Source of the DNA: a virus
Taxonomy: Duplodnaviria > Heunggongvirae > Uroviricota > Caudoviricetes
Reading direction: 5' to 3' (one strand)
DNA length: 4,929 nt
Virus record (IMG/VR): IMGVR_UViG_2690316115_000007
Span: 1-4,929 of that record
Shown: positions 1 through 4,929 of the stretch, one piece after another
How positions within the stretch are numbered: the first letter of the stretch is position 1
Layout: each line of letters starts with the position of its first letter
Program-made: the position numbers and the translations under genes
Notes under the pieces: generated by a model
Seen by the model: the letters and a program-made list of their open reading frames with translations, nothing else
Database searches by the model: none
Told to the model about the DNA's origin: nothing

Positions 1-219
1 CTCCTCCGGCAGAAGCAGAAAAAGCTTATTATGCTTCCATCGGAAACGATGATCTGGCAGCCTGAGTTCACAGATAAAACACTCTCCAGGAAACCCGGGG
101 CGGTTCAATTTCCCTGTCACCTGGTACATTCACTGCATAGCAATACTCCACCTTCGCTTTTCCACCCGGTACAGGAAGCGCAATCAGTTGCGAGCGACGG
201 TAGTGTGTTGTTAAACTGT

Positions 220-804
220 TCATGCGTTAGTTTCTCCACAACCAGAAGCAATCGACGCCACGACGCCCGGAGCTGCACACTCGCGGGCGTTACTCTTTTC
301 CGGCGCACAAAAAACACGAAATAACAGTGTTAAATGCTCCTGCCACTTCGCCATTACTTGGTAGCTGTTCTCTTCGATTTGCTCACGCTCAGCCTGGTCA
401 ATAACTCCATCAGCAGTTGCCTTGCGTAAGTACTGGGAATGCTTGCCAATCCATTCTATTGACTCCATCAGCCGCTGATTAATGTCACCATTGTCAATGT
501 CATCAATGACCACCAGCGGCACAAACACCCCATTACTACGACGGGCTATTGCATCTGTTACATGCCTGGTACCACTGGCATCCTGTAAAACCATGGCCCA
601 CTCAAGTGGAAAAATTTGATCCCCACCGCTACGCAGTCTGTTATGCAATTGATCTTTTGCTGGGGTGATATCATCAGATTTATACAAACCAAGAATTTCT
701 GCTGCTTCCTCATAGCCATGAGGTAAATCAGCAATCGTTCTTCGTATTGCTGCCACCAGCCATGCTGGTTGTTTATCAACTTTCCATTCAGGTTCTTTAC
801 CCAC
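220..804 (-). CDS. CII-position regulatory protein (CII/CP76-like or YdaT-like, tentative), 194 aa, GTG start
   Basis: Longest minus-strand ORF directly downstream of cro (27-nt gap). GTG start at 802-804 is preceded by GAGGAA (revcomp of 812-817) at 6-nt spacing. By eye, the N-terminal segment (AAEILGL...PLEWAMV) resembles the helix-turn-helix region of lambda CII (AEAVGV...LEWGVV). At 194 aa it is about twice the size of lambda CII, so the family assignment is tentative. The 3' end and the region 1-220 are not confidently resolved. Confidence 0.45.
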
Positions 805-831
805 GGTTAATTCCTCATTTCTGTGGTGTTT

Positions 832-1029
832 TTATGCCGCAGCACTGTTAGTCTTTTGATATAAAGACACGTCAACTTTCAGTTTCCCGTTAGTAATTTT
901 TTCTAACTGGTACGCTCGGCCTTCAGGAATAATCTCAGGCCACTCTGAAACAGACGGATGCTTAATACCTAGGGCTTCGGCGGTTTTACAAACTCCGCCG
1001 AAATAATTAATCACGTCGGATTTCCGCAT
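832..1029 (-). CDS. cro: Cro-like small HTH repressor (Cro/YdaS-type), 65 aa
   Basis: ATG at 1027-1029 (minus strand) preceded by GGGAGA (revcomp of 1035-1040) at 5-nt spacing. Transcribed divergently from the repressor gene across the operator region. The protein motif FGG..KTAEALGI..PSVSEW parallels lambda Cro (FGQTKTAKDLGV.QSAINKA), and the short Ala-rich C-terminus is similar. Size and position are typical of cro. Confidence 0.75.
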   Translation of the reverse strand: MRKSDVINYFGGVCKTAEALGIKHPSVSEWPEIIPEGRAYQLEKITNGKLKVDVSLYQKTNSAAA

Positions 1030-1060
1030 TTCTGTCTCCCGTTAAATTACGTTAAGCAGA

Positions 1061-1090
1061 AATGTAGGATATCCAACATGCCAATGTCAA
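1061..1090 (-). promoter_or_regulatory. PR-like promoter driving cro: -35 TTGACA (revcomp of 1085-1090), 18-nt spacer, -10 TACATT (revcomp of 1061-1066)
   Basis: Consensus -35 hexamer and a 4/6 -10 hexamer on the minus strand, about 30 nt upstream of the cro SD. The -10 and spacer lie inside operator O1. The same -35/spacer/-10 arrangement recurs at 1865-1894 on the plus strand. Confidence 0.55.
1062..1079. promoter_or_regulatory. Operator O1: 18-bp near-palindrome ATGTAGGATATCCAACAT
   Basis: Imperfect inverted repeat (half-sites ATGTAGGAT / ATGTTGGAT, 8 of 9 symmetric). Overlaps the -10 of the PR-like promoter. Its exact reverse complement occurs at 1876-1893. Confidence 0.65.
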
Positions 1091-1126
1091 GAATCCTACA
1101 TGGGCATGTGGTAGGATTGCCTACAT
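1084..1126. promoter_or_regulatory. Operator-like sites O2 (about 1084-1101, good half-site ATCCTACAT at 1093-1101) and O3 (1109-1126, tgGTAGGAT/TGCCTACAT)
   Basis: Reiterated ATGTAGGAT/ATCCTACAT-type half-sites. Centre-to-centre spacings from O1 are about 22 and 47 bp, resembling the tripartite lambda OR layout. O3 overlaps the repressor start codon (CCTACATG). A weak rightward -10-like TAGGAT at 1112-1117 could serve as a PRM-like promoter. Confidence 0.45.
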
Positions 1127-1778
1127 GATGAACATGAGTGATCGTATTCGCCAAAGGCGAAAAGAACTGAACCTGACACAACAAGCACTGGCTGATTTGA
1201 CTGGTGTGAACCGTGTCACGGTTACTGGATGGGAAAAGGACGACTACCAACCAAATGGAGCCAACCTTCAAGCCCTAGCCAACGCACTTAAATGCGATCC
1301 TCTGTGGCTTGTTAGCGGAAAAGGCTCGCCTGAACCAAAGATAAATCTAAAACCTGAAATATTCGCAGTTAAAAAAGTCCCCCTAATCTCGTGGGTTCAG
1401 GCGGGTTCATGGACAATGACGGAGCCTGGTGTCAGGAAAGAAGATGCTGAAGAGTGGGTTTATACTACCGCCCTTGTATCAGAAATGGCATTTGCACTAC
1501 GGGTCCGTGGTGATTCAATGACCAATCCCCTCGGCTCACCATCGATACCAGAAGGTTCTATCGTTATCGTAGAGCCAGATATTATTGATACAGAGTGTAT
1601 TAACGGAAAAATCGTTGTTGCCCATATCAATGGTGGGCAAGAAGCGACACTCAAAAAATTTGTTGAGGACTGGCCGAACAGGTATCTCGTCCCACTAAAT
1701 CCTAACTATAAAACTATTGAATGCGGTGAGAACTGCAGAATAGTTGGTCTTGTCAAACAAGTAATAATGGATTTTTGA
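1125..1778 (+). CDS. cI: Lambda-CI-like prophage repressor: N-terminal XRE-type HTH plus C-terminal LexA/S24 autopeptidase domain, 217 aa
   Basis: HTH segment LTQQALADLTGVNRVTVTGWE. Ala-Gly cleavage-site motif WVQA|GSW (codons 93-94, nt 1401-1406) matching lambda VQAGMF. Catalytic Ser in RVRGDSM (nt 1515-1517) and a Lys pair in ATLKKF. C-terminus LNPNYKTIECGENCRIVGLV closely parallels lambda CI [20 protein letters not shown]. Three in-frame ATGs (1125, 1128, 1134) make the exact start uncertain. Confidence 0.9.
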   Translation: MMNMSDRIRQRRKELNLTQQALADLTGVNRVTVTGWEKDDYQPNGANLQALANALKCDPLWLVSGKGSPEPKINLKPEIFAVKKVPLISWVQAGSWTMTEPGVRKEDAEEWVYTTALVSEMAFALRVRGDSMTNPLGSPSIPEGSIVIVEPDIIDTECINGKIVVAHINGGQEATLKKFVEDWPNRYLVPLNPNYKTIECGENCRIVGLVKQVIMDF

Positions 1779-1798
1779 CACATCTTCCTCACTATCGC

Positions 1799-1824
1799 AA
1801 AACCGGGGTATCCCCGGTTTTTTT
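1799..1824. terminator. Bidirectional rho-independent terminator downstream of the repressor gene
   Basis: Perfect hairpin CCGGGG-tat-CCCCGG (1803-1817), extended by AAAA (1799-1802) pairing with TTTT (1818-1821) and followed by a run of 7 T (1818-1824). The upstream A-run gives terminator character on the minus strand as well. Confidence 0.7.
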
Positions 1825-1840
1825 ATGAGCCTATCTTTTT

Positions 1841-1894
1841 ATGTAGGATAACCAACATAAACTCTTGACACTCACATGTTGGATATCCTACATT
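1841..1894 (+). promoter_or_regulatory. PL-like early promoter with two operators: OL-a ATGTAGGATAACCAACAT (1841-1858), -35 TTGACA (1865-1870), OL-b ATGTTGGATATCCTACAT (1876-1893), -10 TACATT (1889-1894)
   Basis: Consensus -35, 18-nt spacer and a 4/6 -10, identical in architecture to the cro promoter. OL-b is the exact reverse complement of O1 and overlaps the spacer and -10. OL-a is a 17/18 match to O1. Confidence 0.6.
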
Positions 1895-2088
1895 TGTTTT
1901 TAGAGTTGTGGTGAATGCGCAGGCTGATGCGCGAAAGACATTGCAGCTATTGCGGAAAAGAGCTGTTCGGCGGGGCAATTAAACGCCCGTGAGAGTCTGA
2001 AATAACCGCAAGCCGGAGATCAGCACCGGTCACCACAACAGCCACTGCTTTGGCGGTACCAGTTTGTACACTTGCTTCCGGCTGGTAC

Positions 2089-2100
2089 CGCTCTTTTTAC
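2089..2100 (+). promoter_or_regulatory. boxA-like motif CGCTCTTTTTAC in the early leader
   Basis: Resembles the lambda nut boxA core CGCTCTTA and the rrn boxA TGCTCTTTAACAA. Sits about 190 nt downstream of the PL-like promoter and immediately 5' of a long hairpin. Confidence 0.3.
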
Positions 2101-2187
2101 AAAACAGAGAAGAGCATCACCGGACGACGGGCTCATAACCCAATCCATCCGGGCGGCTGCCACCGCAGGTGTTCTTCTCTGTTTTGT
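2099..2187 (+). other. Large leader RNA hairpin: 13-bp perfect inverted repeat AAAACAGAGAAGA (2101-2113) / TCTTCTCTGTTTT (2173-2185), extendable to about 20 bp with G-U pairs, enclosing about 50-60 nt of GC-rich sequence
   Basis: Inverted repeat read directly from the sequence. The 3' arm ends in UUUU followed by GUGG. Candidate nut/put-like antitermination element or a tL-type terminator/attenuator between the promoter and the first gene. Confidence 0.4.
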
Positions 2188-2235
2188 GGAGAAACCAACC
2201 GACCTTACAGGGTCGATATGATGAGGAGCAGCAAA

Positions 2236-2598
2236 ATGGCTAGCGAACGCAGTACTGATGTGCAGGCATTTATCGGGGAGCTGGACGGCGGCGTATTTGA
2301 AACCAAAATCGGCGCTGTTCTCAGTGAAGTCGCTTCCGGTGTGATGAACACGAAAACCAAAGGTAAGGTCTCGCTCAACCTGGAAATCGAACCGTTTGAT
2401 GAGAACCGTGTGAAAATCAAACACAAACTCTCATATGTTCGCCCGACTAACCGCGGGAAAATTTCTGAAGAAGACACCACCGAAACGCCGATGTATGTCA
2501 ATCGCGGTGGTCGCCTGACTATTCTGCAGGAAGACCAGGGACAATTACTGACTCTTGCCGGTGAACCTGACGGAAAACTCCGCGCAGCAGGTCATTAA
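2236..2598 (+). CDS. yfdP: YfdP-like prophage protein of unknown function, 120 aa
   Basis: ATG at 2236 preceded by the strong SD GAGGAG (2223-2228) at 7-nt spacing. The upstream in-frame extension to 2050 has no SD and overlaps the structured leader. The 120-aa length and its position immediately before the 274-aa and 178-aa genes match my recollection of yfdP-yfdQ-yfdR in K-12 CPS-53. In-frame ATGs at 2218 and 2221 are alternative starts. Confidence 0.7.
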   Translation: MASERSTDVQAFIGELDGGVFETKIGAVLSEVASGVMNTKTKGKVSLNLEIEPFDENRVKIKHKLSYVRPTNRGKISEEDTTETPMYVNRGGRLTILQEDQGQLLTLAGEPDGKLRAAGH

Positions 2599-2663
2599 TA
2601 TCGTTCTTAATTAACTGATTATTTATCTCATCACTGAATATCTTTATATAGTGAGGACTTATT

Positions 2664-3488
2664 ATGTCTCAGAACTTAGACGCAACCGCAATTAATCAAA
2701 TCCATGCTCTTATTTCTGCTCAGGGTGTTAATGAAATTATCAGTAATATTGGTGCCGATGCTGTGGCATTGCCTGAGAATTTCCGCATTCATGATCTGGA
2801 AAAATTTAATTTAAATCGCTTCCGTTTCCGTGGCGCGCTTTCCACTGCCAGCATCGATGATTTTACCCGTTATTCTAAAGATCTTGCAGATGAAGGCACC
2901 CGCTGCTTTATCGATGCTGATAATATGCGTGCCGTCAGTGTGCTTAACCTGGGTACTATTGATGAACCAGGTCACGCAGATAACACCGCCACTCTCAAAC
3001 TGAAAAAGACAGCACCGTTCTCTGCTCTGTTGTCTGTTAACGGCGAGCGTAACTCCCAGAAGTCACTGGCAGAATGGATTGAAGACTGGGCCGACTACCT
3101 TGTGGGCTTTGATGCTAATGGTGACGCCATTCAGGCAACCAAAGCGGCTGCGGCGATCCGTAAAATCACAATTGAAGCGAACCAGACCGCTGATTTTGAA
3201 GATAATGACTTCAGCGGCAAACGCTCCCTGATGGAGTCTGTCGAAGCGAAGACCAAAGACATTATGCCAGTGGCATTTGAATTTAAATGCGTTCCGTTTG
3301 AAGGTCTGAAAGAACGTCCATTTAAATTACGCCTCAGCATTATCACTGGCGATCGTCCTGTACTGGTTCTGCGCATTATTCAGCTGGAAGCAGTGCAGGA
3401 AGAAATGGCTAACGAATTTCGTGATCTGCTTGTTGAGAAATTCAAAGACAGCAAAGTAGAAACCTTTATTGGTACTTTCACCGCCTGA
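2664..3488 (+). CDS. yfdQ: YfdQ-like protein (DUF2303-type as recalled), 274 aa, function unknown
   Basis: ATG at 2664 with SD GAGGA (2653-2657) at 6-nt spacing. Clean 274-aa ORF. Length and synteny match my recollection of K-12 YfdQ. No catalytic motif recognised by eye. Confidence 0.75.
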
Positions 3489-3500
3489 TTTCATTACTGC

Positions 3501-3522
3501 AAATGCCCCTGCGGGGGCATTT
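3501..3522. other. Stem-loop AAATGCCCC-tgcg-GGGGCATTT immediately after yfdQ; possible weak intrinsic terminator or attenuator
   Basis: 9-bp perfect stem with a 4-nt loop, 13 nt after the yfdQ stop codon. Only a short U-tract follows (UUUAU), so complete termination is doubtful. Confidence 0.4.
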
Positions 3523-3616
3523 ATGGAAACGTAATTAACTCAATAATCGCCGGATGGTGCGGGATTCCTTTTACCCGAATTCAGCGCGGTGCAGCGCATA
3601 TAAAGTGGAGAACGAA

Positions 3617-4153
3617 ATGTCATTTATTAAAACTTTTTCCGGGAAGCATTTTTATTATGACAAGATAAATAAAGACGACATCGTGATTAACGATATCGCG
3701 GTTTCCCTTTCAAATATCTGTCGCTTTGCAGGACATCTTTCACACTTCTACAGTGTCGCCCAGCATGCGGTGCTTTGCCGCCAGCTGGTGCCGCAGGAAT
3801 TTGCTTTTGAAGCGTTAATGCATGATGCAACAGAAGCGTATTGCCAGGACATCCCCGCACCACTGAAACGACTTCTTCCTGACTATAAACGGATGGAGGA
3901 AAAAATAGACGCCGTAATCCGTGAGAAATACGGGTTACCTCCTGTTATGAGCACGCCAGTGAAATATGCCGATCTCATCATGCTGGCAACCGAACGCCGC
4001 GATCTCGGACTTGATGATGGCTCTTTCTGGCCTGTATTGGAAGGTATCCCGGCAACAGAGATGTTCAAAGTGATTCCACTGGCACCGGGCCATGCCTACG
4101 GGATGTTTATGGAACGCTTCAACGAGTTATCGGAATTACGCAAATGTGCATAA
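3617..4153 (+). CDS. yfdR: HD-domain phosphohydrolase, YfdR-like (5'-deoxynucleotidase family), 178 aa
   Basis: ATG at 3617 with SD GGAG (3607-3610) at 6-nt spacing. The HD signature is in LMHDATEAY (His-Asp at nt 3821-3826). The 178-aa length and position match my recollection of K-12 YfdR. The longer 199-aa ORF from 3554 lacks an SD. Confidence 0.8.
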   Translation: MSFIKTFSGKHFYYDKINKDDIVINDIAVSLSNICRFAGHLSHFYSVAQHAVLCRQLVPQEFAFEALMHDATEAYCQDIPAPLKRLLPDYKRMEEKIDAVIREKYGLPPVMSTPVKYADLIMLATERRDLGLDDGSFWPVLEGIPATEMFKVIPLAPGHAYGMFMERFNELSELRKCA

Positions 4154-4869
4154 CTCATGTAGTTAGTTTTTCTGGCGGGAGAACATCTGCATATCTTGTT
4201 CACCTGATGGAAGAACAAAGAAAGGCTGGCAATAACGTCTGCTACACCTTTATGGATACCGGTTGCGAACATCCGCTGACATACCGCTTTATTCGGGAGG
4301 TTGTGAAGTTCTGGGGCATACCGCTAACTGTGTTGCAGGTCGATATAAATCCAGAGCTTGGGCAGCCAAATGGTTATACGGAATGGGAACCAAAGGATAT
4401 TCAGACGCGAATGCCGGTGCTTAAACCGTTTATGGACATGGTTAAAAAGTACGGTACGCCATACATCGGCGGCGCATTCTGTACTGACAGGCTAAAACTC
4501 ACCCCTTTCACGAAATATTGCGATGACCATTTTGGGCGAGGGAATTACATCACATGGCTGGGTATTCGTGCAGACGAACCCCGCAGGCTGAAACCGAAAC
4601 CGGGCGTCCGGTATCTCGCCGAACTGTCAGATTTTGATAAGTCGGATGTTATCCGGTGGTGGCGTAAACAGCCGTTCGATTTACTTATCCCTGAGCACCT
4701 CGGGAACTATGTTTTCTGCATCAAAAAGTCAACGCAAAAGCTGGGGCTTGCATGTAAGGACGAACCTGGCCTGATGCGGGTTTTTAATGAACTGGTTACA
4801 GGCCAACACGTCAGGGACGGTCTGAGGTGTACTGACAATAGCGGACACTACCATTTGTTCTTTTTTTAA
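4144..4869 (+). CDS. PAPS-reductase-family PP-loop protein (phosphoadenosine phosphosulfate reductase-like), 241 aa
   Basis: PP-loop-like motif VVSFSGGRTS (nt 4165-4188). FMDTGCEHPLTYRFIREV closely parallels E. coli CysH ILTDTGYLFPETYRFIDEL. The start codon overlaps the yfdR stop (ATGTGCATAA, 4144-4153), indicating translational coupling. Confidence 0.8.
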   Translation: MCITHVVSFSGGRTSAYLVHLMEEQRKAGNNVCYTFMDTGCEHPLTYRFIREVVKFWGIPLTVLQVDINPELGQPNGYTEWEPKDIQTRMPVLKPFMDMVKKYGTPYIGGAFCTDRLKLTPFTKYCDDHFGRGNYITWLGIRADEPRRLKPKPGVRYLAELSDFDKSDVIRWWRKQPFDLLIPEHLGNYVFCIKKSTQKLGLACKDEPGLMRVFNELVTGQHVRDGLRCTDNSGHYHLFFF

Positions 4870-4929
4870 GCAGCTATCTGATGATATTTTTCCCTGAAGG
4901 CTGCCGGGGAGATATTCCCCAGACGAGAG

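Follow-up and report, generated by a model that had tools for sequence, protein, structure and literature searches.

Gene Content and Probable Operator Sites

A 4,929-nucleotide stretch of Caudoviricetes DNA (IMG/VR record IMGVR_UViG_2690316115_000007, positions 1 to 4,929; hereafter the window, to whose numbering all coordinates refer) contains a gene for a 217-amino acid repressor (1125-1778, plus strand) with copies of an 18-bp palindrome on both sides of it. The window very probably holds the immunity region, or genetic switch, of an Escherichia coli lambdoid prophage, with the palindromes serving as operators of the repressor. A cro gene (832-1029, minus strand; 65 amino acids; Pfam P22_Cro, E = 7.6e-22) with a Shine-Dalgarno sequence, GGGAGA, at 1040-1035 diverges from the repressor gene, and three of the palindromic sites fall within the 95-bp gap between the two. 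Downstream of cro in the operon of promoter PR is a gene for a CII-like regulator of 194 amino acids (220-804, minus strand) with a weak match to Pfam Phage_CP76 (28.8 bits, cut-off 26). This gene is co-inherited with the immunity module, as the identity shared with IMG/VR copies ends on the left at window positions 102-210.

The repressor has an N-terminal HTH_3 domain (residues 8-62, E = 1.1e-15) followed by a Peptidase_S24 domain (residues 86-210, E = 3.7e-25). Among structures in the PDB, the full-length protein matches that of lambda cI (E = 7e-25), to which its C-terminal domain is homologous, and its N-terminal domain matches the P22 c2 structures 1ADR and 2R1J (E about 5e-14). In a family alignment, the Ala93-Gly94 cleavage site (in VQAG) and the catalytic dyad of Ser131 (in GDSM) and Lys177/178 are invariant, and each lines up with its counterpart in lambda cI. 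Homology thus assigns the protein to the lambdoid CI-type repressors (LexA-like, S24), with an N-terminal half like that of P22 c2 and a C-terminal half like that of lambda cI.

The palindromic sites form two clusters. On the left, O1 (1062-1079; ATGTAGGATATCCAACAT), the equivalent of OR1, covers the spacer and -10 element of PR; O2 (1084-1101; ATGTCAAGAATCCTACAT), the weakest site with three mismatches, covers the PR -35 element; and O3 (1109-1126; TGGTAGGATTGCCTACAT) has as its last two bases the A and T of the repressor ATG. On the right, OL2 (1841-1858; ATGTAGGATAACCAACAT) lies upstream of the -35 element of promoter PL, and OL1 (1876-1893; ATGTTGGATATCCTACAT) is the exact reverse complement of O1. 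A sequence-only reading of this region, in which OL2 and OL1 were called OL-a and OL-b, had described O1 and OL-b as exact reverse complements, OL-a as a copy matching at 17 of 18 positions, and O2 and O3 as degenerate copies. Direct checks bear out these descriptions with all of their coordinates: OL2 differs from O1 by one base, and O2 and O3 match the ideal palindrome, ATGTAGGATATCCTACAT, at 13 and 14 of 18 positions, respectively. The same reading had called the region mirror-symmetric, which holds for the 40-bp promoter/operator core (an inverted repeat of 1053-1092 and 1863-1902, 40 nt at 85% identity according to a repeat finder) but not for the region as a whole, where three sites spaced 22 and 25 bp apart face two sites spaced 35 bp apart.

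The sites are not expected by chance. The separated exact inverted repeat is 21 nt long, whereas the longest in each of 200 first-order Markov sequences was 10-14 nt. The pattern ATGTWGGNNNNCCWACAT, with up to three mismatches allowed, has five matches in the window compared with 0.69 expected, a count reached in none of 200 shuffles, and all five fall in the two intergenic regions beside the repressor gene. In 50 kb of the closest phage genome, that of Lys8385Vzw, a Shiga toxin (Stx) 1a-converting phage that, like several Stx2c-converting phages, is 99.7% identical to window positions 800-2300, matches with zero to two mismatches are confined to the immunity region, and the four additional three-mismatch matches are within chance expectation. 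The operator is an 18-bp sequence of two-fold symmetry with the half-site ATGTWGG and approximately four weakly constrained central bases; as palindromes, O1 and OL1 pair at eight of nine positions. Across 130 half-sites, positions 3, 4, 6, and 7 are nearly invariant and positions 8-9 more variable, though the half-sites were picked by their match to the consensus and this test of the central bases is partly circular.

As a separate observation, the centers of O1 (1068-1073) and OL1 (1882-1887) read GATATC, an EcoRV-type palindrome, and the parent phage encodes an N6-adenine methyltransferase.

Promoters and Terminator

PR (1090-1061, minus strand) has a -35 element TTGACA (1090-1085), an 18-nt spacer, and a -10 element TACATT (1066-1061). 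PL (1865-1894, plus strand) has the same three parts, with TTGACA at 1865-1870 and TACATT at 1889-1894. Outward-facing promoters of this architecture overlapping the 18-mers had been proposed, and a scan with the sigma-70 consensus agrees: it found four sites in the window, of which PR and PL are the best, each matching at 10 of 12 positions. Both point away from the repressor gene, with O1 overlapping the -10 element of PR and OL1 that of PL. The two promoters share a composite design (TTGACA, 5 nt, ATGTTGGATATCC, TACATT), in which the outer half-site (CCTACAT) supplies the -10 element. The inverted orientation of O1 and OL1 is explained by this overlap, because the half-site's TACAT plus a T forms the -10 element of each outward-facing promoter. 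In lambda and in phage 21, OR1 and OL1 are likewise inverted copies within outward-facing promoters. Inverted OL1 and OR1 sites inside PL and PR are the canonical lambdoid layout.

The promoter of the repressor gene, PRM, is less apparent. The first two bases of O3 are TG rather than the consensus AT, a departure kept in every relative, including phage mEp390, and one that creates an extended -10 motif, TGgTAGGAT (1109-1117, plus strand), 7 nt before the ATG at 1125; the geometry of TAGGAT, 7 nt, and ATG is also retained in all relatives. The putative PRM would be an extended -10 promoter lacking a -35 element and producing a leaderless repressor mRNA, as for lambda cI. We give this model about equal chances of being right or wrong. 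An alternative PRM with TACATG (1122-1127) as its -10 element and a start at ATG 1134 has a geometry like that of lambda. It was ranked below the extended -10 model because it is missing the conserved final T of the -10 element and because its geometry is not kept in mEp390.

The repressor gene is followed by an intrinsic terminator (1799-1824, plus strand; CCGGGG-TAT-CCCCGG and then seven T) that separates it from the right-hand sites and has a predicted fold of -15.2 kcal/mol (z = -3.8). Relatives keep the hairpin and T-run through full replacement of the stem, whose arm reads CCGGGG, CCGGGC, CCGAGC, CCGGAT, or CCGACA. A consensus terminator scan of the window did not list it, probably because the stem, lengthened by flanking A/T bases, reaches into the T-run. 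Rfam, searched with the whole window, gave only a subthreshold match to Termite-leu (21.7 bits against a gathering threshold of 51) over the terminator and OL2, which we regard as meaningless.

Conservation among Relatives

The closest repressors of named phages are those of mEp390 (60.5% identity) and of the group of P22 c2 and phage 21 cI (∼44-46%). A scan of IMG/VR added relatives with repressor identities of 92%, 84%, 83%, 80%, 76%, and 75%. A profile search of genome contigs, with one genome per species, returned distant relatives only (≤42% identity), and these were left out of the operator comparison.

O1 is identical in all relatives whose repressors are 75-100% identical. O3 is the most conserved site, with 16 of 18 positions conserved (the exceptions are positions 10 and 11, in one relative each). 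For O2, the right half alone is conserved, and the site drops below the scan threshold in some relatives. All relatives have OL2 in the corresponding place, but its central bases vary, as does the orientation of the A/T at position 5. OL1, OL2, both TTGACA hexamers, and both -10 elements are retained, mEp390 included. Across 10 relatives, the -35 and -10 elements of PL are invariant, and the PR -35 element and O1 show little or no change. Spacing is equally constrained: the left-hand sites are 22 and 25-26 bp apart and the right-hand sites exactly 35 bp apart, the latter in all 13 loci as well as in the phage 21 immunity region (imm21). The sequences that have diverged in the relatives at 75-92% are the cro leader, the spacers between operators, the region after the repressor stop codon, and the terminator stems. 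Spacers, leaders, and terminator stems differ in mEp390 as well.

The recognition helix of the repressor, NRVTVTGWE, is invariant among these relatives. Cro identities of 91%, 80%, 75%, 57%, and 49% parallel repressor identities of 92%, 84%, 76%, 60%, and 44%. Cro, the operators, and the repressor therefore make up a single module that is inherited, and diverges, as a unit. Together, these comparisons argue strongly, though indirectly, that the palindromes function in protein binding and are linked to the 217-amino acid repressor.

Comparison with Known Switches

The immunity regions of P22 and phage 21 offer the closest parallels, and the N-terminus of the imm21 repressor is identical at 51 of 52 residues to the crystallized N-terminal domain of P22 c2. 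The N-terminal domain of the P22/21 repressors is 49% identical to that of the window's repressor, and the proteins share the same two-domain build. Their 18-bp operators also have two-fold symmetry with weakly constrained central bases, and their Cro proteins belong to the P22_Cro family. In both phage 21 and the window, OL2 is followed by the -35 element (TTGACC in imm21, TTGACA in the window) and then by OL1 exactly 35 bp on, and the -10 element consists of the outer five bases of OL1 plus a T (TAAATT in imm21, TACATT in the window). Between cro and the repressor gene, each has three sites at spacings of 22-23 and 25 bp; the third abuts or overlaps the ATG. The distance between OR1 and OL1 is 816 bp in imm21 and 814 bp in the window. 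The protein domains, the conservation in relatives, and this shared layout with phage 21 all support the earlier proposal that the 18-mers are probably operators of the 217-amino acid repressor.

Differences from P22 and phage 21 are found where specificity is determined. The half-site is ATTTAAG in phage 21 and P22 and ATGTAGG in the window, so that two contacted positions differ. The recognition helix is SNVAISQWE in phage 21 and P22 c2 and NRVTVTGWE in the window, with Ser-to-Asn, Asn-to-Arg, Ser-to-Thr, and Gln-to-Gly substitutions. In another relative, phage 569R4, a third helix, SDVAVGYWE, is paired with ACTAAG-type sites. Half-site and helix comparisons thus do not support homoimmunity with P22/21, and the combination of a different half-site and a different helix implies that the specificity is probably unlike theirs, i.e., heteroimmune. 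By these comparisons, the locus is a homolog of the P22/21 immunity region, with what is predicted to be a new, uncharacterized specificity. A further difference is that no N-type or gene 24-type antiterminator gene and no nutL site follow PL in the window.

Lambda resembles the window in several respects. Its repressor has a homologous C-terminal domain in which both the Ala-Gly cleavage site and a Ser/Lys dyad are present, its PR and PRM diverge from a three-site OR, its OL1 and OR1 are near-identical and inverted inside PL and PR, and a leaderless repressor mRNA is possibly common to both. In contrast, the operators of lambda are 17 bp long with an unrelated recognition sequence, and rexA and rexB lie between cI and OL, placing the operators ∼2.3-2.4 kb apart. 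The phage mEp390 and prophages from IMG/VR (L147-L165) share with the window the recognition helix, layout, spacings, and TACATT of PL. Although the mEp390 repressor is only 60% identical, its O3 (TGGTAGGATTGCCTACAT) is the same; one half-site in each of its O1 and OL1 sites contains GTAAG. The phage 933W, a lambdoid phage that converts its host to Stx2 production, has three OR sites and no OL3 (PMC3317979), and its repressor is reported to be noncooperative. It belongs to a different specificity group, the repressors of such Stx phages being about 34-36% identical to that of the window (tblastn).

Proposed Mechanism of Repression

The sequence elements, their conservation, and the families of the encoded proteins are directly visible at this locus; how they work together can be proposed by analogy. 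As in lambda and P22, repressor dimers are expected to bind the 18-bp operators. Dimers on O1 and O2 would cover the -10 element, spacer, and -35 element of PR and thereby turn off cro, the cII-like gene, and the replication genes, which form the equivalent of the rightward early operon. OL1, between the -35 and -10 elements of PL, and OL2, just upstream of the -35 element, would together shut the other early operon. A dimer on O3 would overlap the promoter of the repressor gene as well as its start codon and so provide negative autoregulation when repressor is abundant. The P22_Cro-family Cro protein should use these sites too. RecA activated by the SOS response would stimulate self-cleavage of the repressor and so induce the prophage and, in Stx-converting carriers, toxin expression as well. 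Occupancy of each site by the repressor, cooperativity, and any OL-OR looping are inferred, as is the leaderless extended -10 PRM. For comparison, the P22 repressor binds six 18-bp symmetric sites, does not contact their four central base pairs, and is cooperative at adjacent sites (PMC4267663).

Several observations weigh against reading the palindromes as the operators of a lambdoid switch. Only two matches to the operator occur between the terminator and PL, in the window and likewise in relatives, rather than three; P22 has three OL sites (PMC4267663), imm21 likely has a third, and lambda has three. O2 is weak, with three mismatches among 14 specified positions, and is below the scan threshold in several relatives; it may be wholly dependent on cooperativity or be a poor site. 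The 35 bp from OL2 to OL1 (∼3.3 helical turns) exceeds the spacings that support cooperativity between adjacent dimers in lambda; the spacing in phage 21, however, is identical. The putative PRM has no recognizable -35 element, and a start at 1125 puts the center of O2 near -32.5, compared with -42 in lambda, which makes the mechanism by which repressor bound at O2 could activate PRM questionable. A literature search with the operator string returned only unrelated primer matches and did not find the operator sequence in the papers searched.

These same features could be read as a difference in wiring. In such a case, autoregulation of the switch would depart from that of lambda, with a leaderless PRM lacking a -35 element, O2 near -32.5, O3 over the -10 element and start, and two OL dimers 35 bp apart that bracket the -35 element; any 0.8-kb loop could tighten repression of PR and PL but could not provide the shut-off that in lambda depends on OL3 and OR3. 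We consider this improbable. If true, the departing wiring might give a low level of repressor and a high rate of spontaneous induction in the Stx1a and Stx2c phages that have the module.

Alternative Explanations

The distance between the operator clusters has itself been taken as the key feature, with a short OL-OR separation and identical outer operators serving a repressor-mediated loop. A loop of ∼0.8 kb is cheaper in terms of polymer physics than one of 2.3 kb. The C-terminal domain of the repressor is homologous to that of lambda cI (E = 1e-22), and lambda cI loops OL to OR over 2317 bp (PMC2685085). The ∼0.8-kb distance was measured correctly in the sequence-only reading, but its contrast with the 2.4 kb of lambda does not make it special. 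The distance between OR1 and OL1 is 803-814 bp in nine relatives and 803-816 bp over 14 loci when imm21, at 816 bp, is included; ∼0.8 kb is therefore normal for the family. The repressor gene and the terminator together account for this length in P22/21-type regions, which have no rex genes; rexA and rexB make lambda the exception. The distance also varies by 3-11 bp without helical phasing, which would matter little at ∼0.8 kb. With only two OL sites, there is no third to pair with O3, as is also the case in 933W (PMC3317979), and the OL3-OR3 pairing of lambda cannot occur. Oligomerization beyond the dimer is not readable from sequence. Looping between OL and OR by the repressor is physically plausible, but it is doubtful that the distance and the matched outer sites exist to serve it.

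Two other explanations would separate the palindromes from the repressor. One takes the 40-nt inverted repeats for sites of module exchange or for the termini of a cassette that moves or recombines, so that recombination would account for their conservation. The module is indeed mosaic: many phages share window positions 1905-2300 but not the repressor, and copies with an identical repressor leave the window sequence at 1906, 1919, 1988-1990, 2195, or 2212. However, the repressor gene alone lies between the arms, with no transposase or recombinase, and the left boundary of the module, at 102-210, is ∼850 bp past the left arm. The arms hold full consensus promoters with conserved -35 elements, spacing, and -10 elements, and three more copies of the palindrome (O2, O3, and OL2) are outside of them. 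We rejected the interpretation of the repeat as transposon ends on these points and consider the cassette explanation in general extremely improbable. In the other explanation, the main occupant of the palindromes is not the 217-amino acid protein, which would act elsewhere, but Cro alone, a host factor, LexA, or some other protein. The gene adjacent to that of the repressor encodes a P22_Cro-family Cro, and lambdoid Cro proteins share operators with their repressors. Sharing by Cro nevertheless belongs to the repressor-operator model and is not an alternative to it, and strong matches in 50 kb are found only around the repressor gene. We rejected a LexA box on spacing: 10 nt separate TGT from ACA, where 8 would be required. 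Binding mainly by another protein is thus very unlikely. Moreover, half-site changes track the recognition helix of the repressor across P22/21, the clade of the window, and 569R4, which counts against the cassette as well as against another binding protein. Operators bound by the repressor are the explanation that we prefer.

The PL Leader and Its Junction with the Immunity Module

The immunity module joins a leader of ∼340 nt within 12 nt of the PL -10 element, and other copies of the module are joined to other leaders; in relatives at 75-92%, the leaders begin like that of phage 21. A mosaic joint is apparent near 1906 (1895-1910), beyond which mEp460, cdtI, Stx2a phages, SfV, and others, with a different repressor, share positions 1905-2300. 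IME207, the P1-like RCS47, and others have the block at 1905-2040 with 98.5% identity. This block holds a 25-amino acid open reading frame (1915-1992, plus strand; MRRLMRERHCSYCGKELFGGAIKRP) that has a CxxC motif and a weak Shine-Dalgarno sequence and is located at the start of the leader. The genes beyond the leader are yfdP/yfdQ/yfdR-like.

Folding of the whole leader (1895-2235, plus strand) gives a z of -5.1, a sign of strong structure. One terminator-like hairpin, at 2050-2097 (plus strand; GGCGGTACCAG...CTGGTACCGC and then CTCTTTTT), is ∼150-200 nt past PL and precedes the first gene of the operon. A long hairpin follows at 2099-2187. Its core, CGACGGGCTCATWACCCAATCCAYCCGG, is conserved, and the hairpin is found again in Salmonella phage ST64B, Klebsiella phage Kp4866-6, and E. 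coli phage LLS (L169:1193-1312, L170:1193-1318, L171:1193-1320), with compensatory double changes in 5 of 34 predicted pairs, a count drawn from only four sequences. In ST64B and LLS, whose records are annotated, the repressor gene lies on one side of the hairpin and a yfdP-like gene on the other; the record of Kp4866-6 is unannotated. The whole-window scan of Rfam gave no match to the leader hairpin, and comparison of the leader with the PL-nun region of HK022 (put RNA) found only chance 9-10-mers. We suggest the 2099-2187 hairpin as a candidate cis-acting leader RNA.

Distribution and Significance

The 871-bp immunity core is 100% identical to that of E. coli O103 strain RM8385 and is present at ≥99% identity in 140 of 5,426 complete E. 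coli genomes. The paper describing Lys8385Vzw reports that CI, Cro, and CII are absent (PMC7946995). In record MT225100 of this phage, the genes at 32687-34245 are labeled "LexA family transcriptional repressor," "hypothetical protein," and "DNA-binding protein." Lys8385Vzw carries a complete CI/Cro switch, contradicting that report (PMC7946995).

The locus is a conventional lambdoid immunity region that, beyond the Stx context and the variant specificity, brings no new concept to the lambdoid paradigm. Relative to P22, each half-site of the operator is changed at two contacted positions and the recognition helix has four substitutions; together these provide a natural variant for studies of DNA recognition by helix-turn-helix proteins. 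Presence of the module in Stx1a- and Stx2c-converting phages implies that the timing of toxin gene expression in those strains is under its control, and its control over prophage induction gives it clinical relevance.

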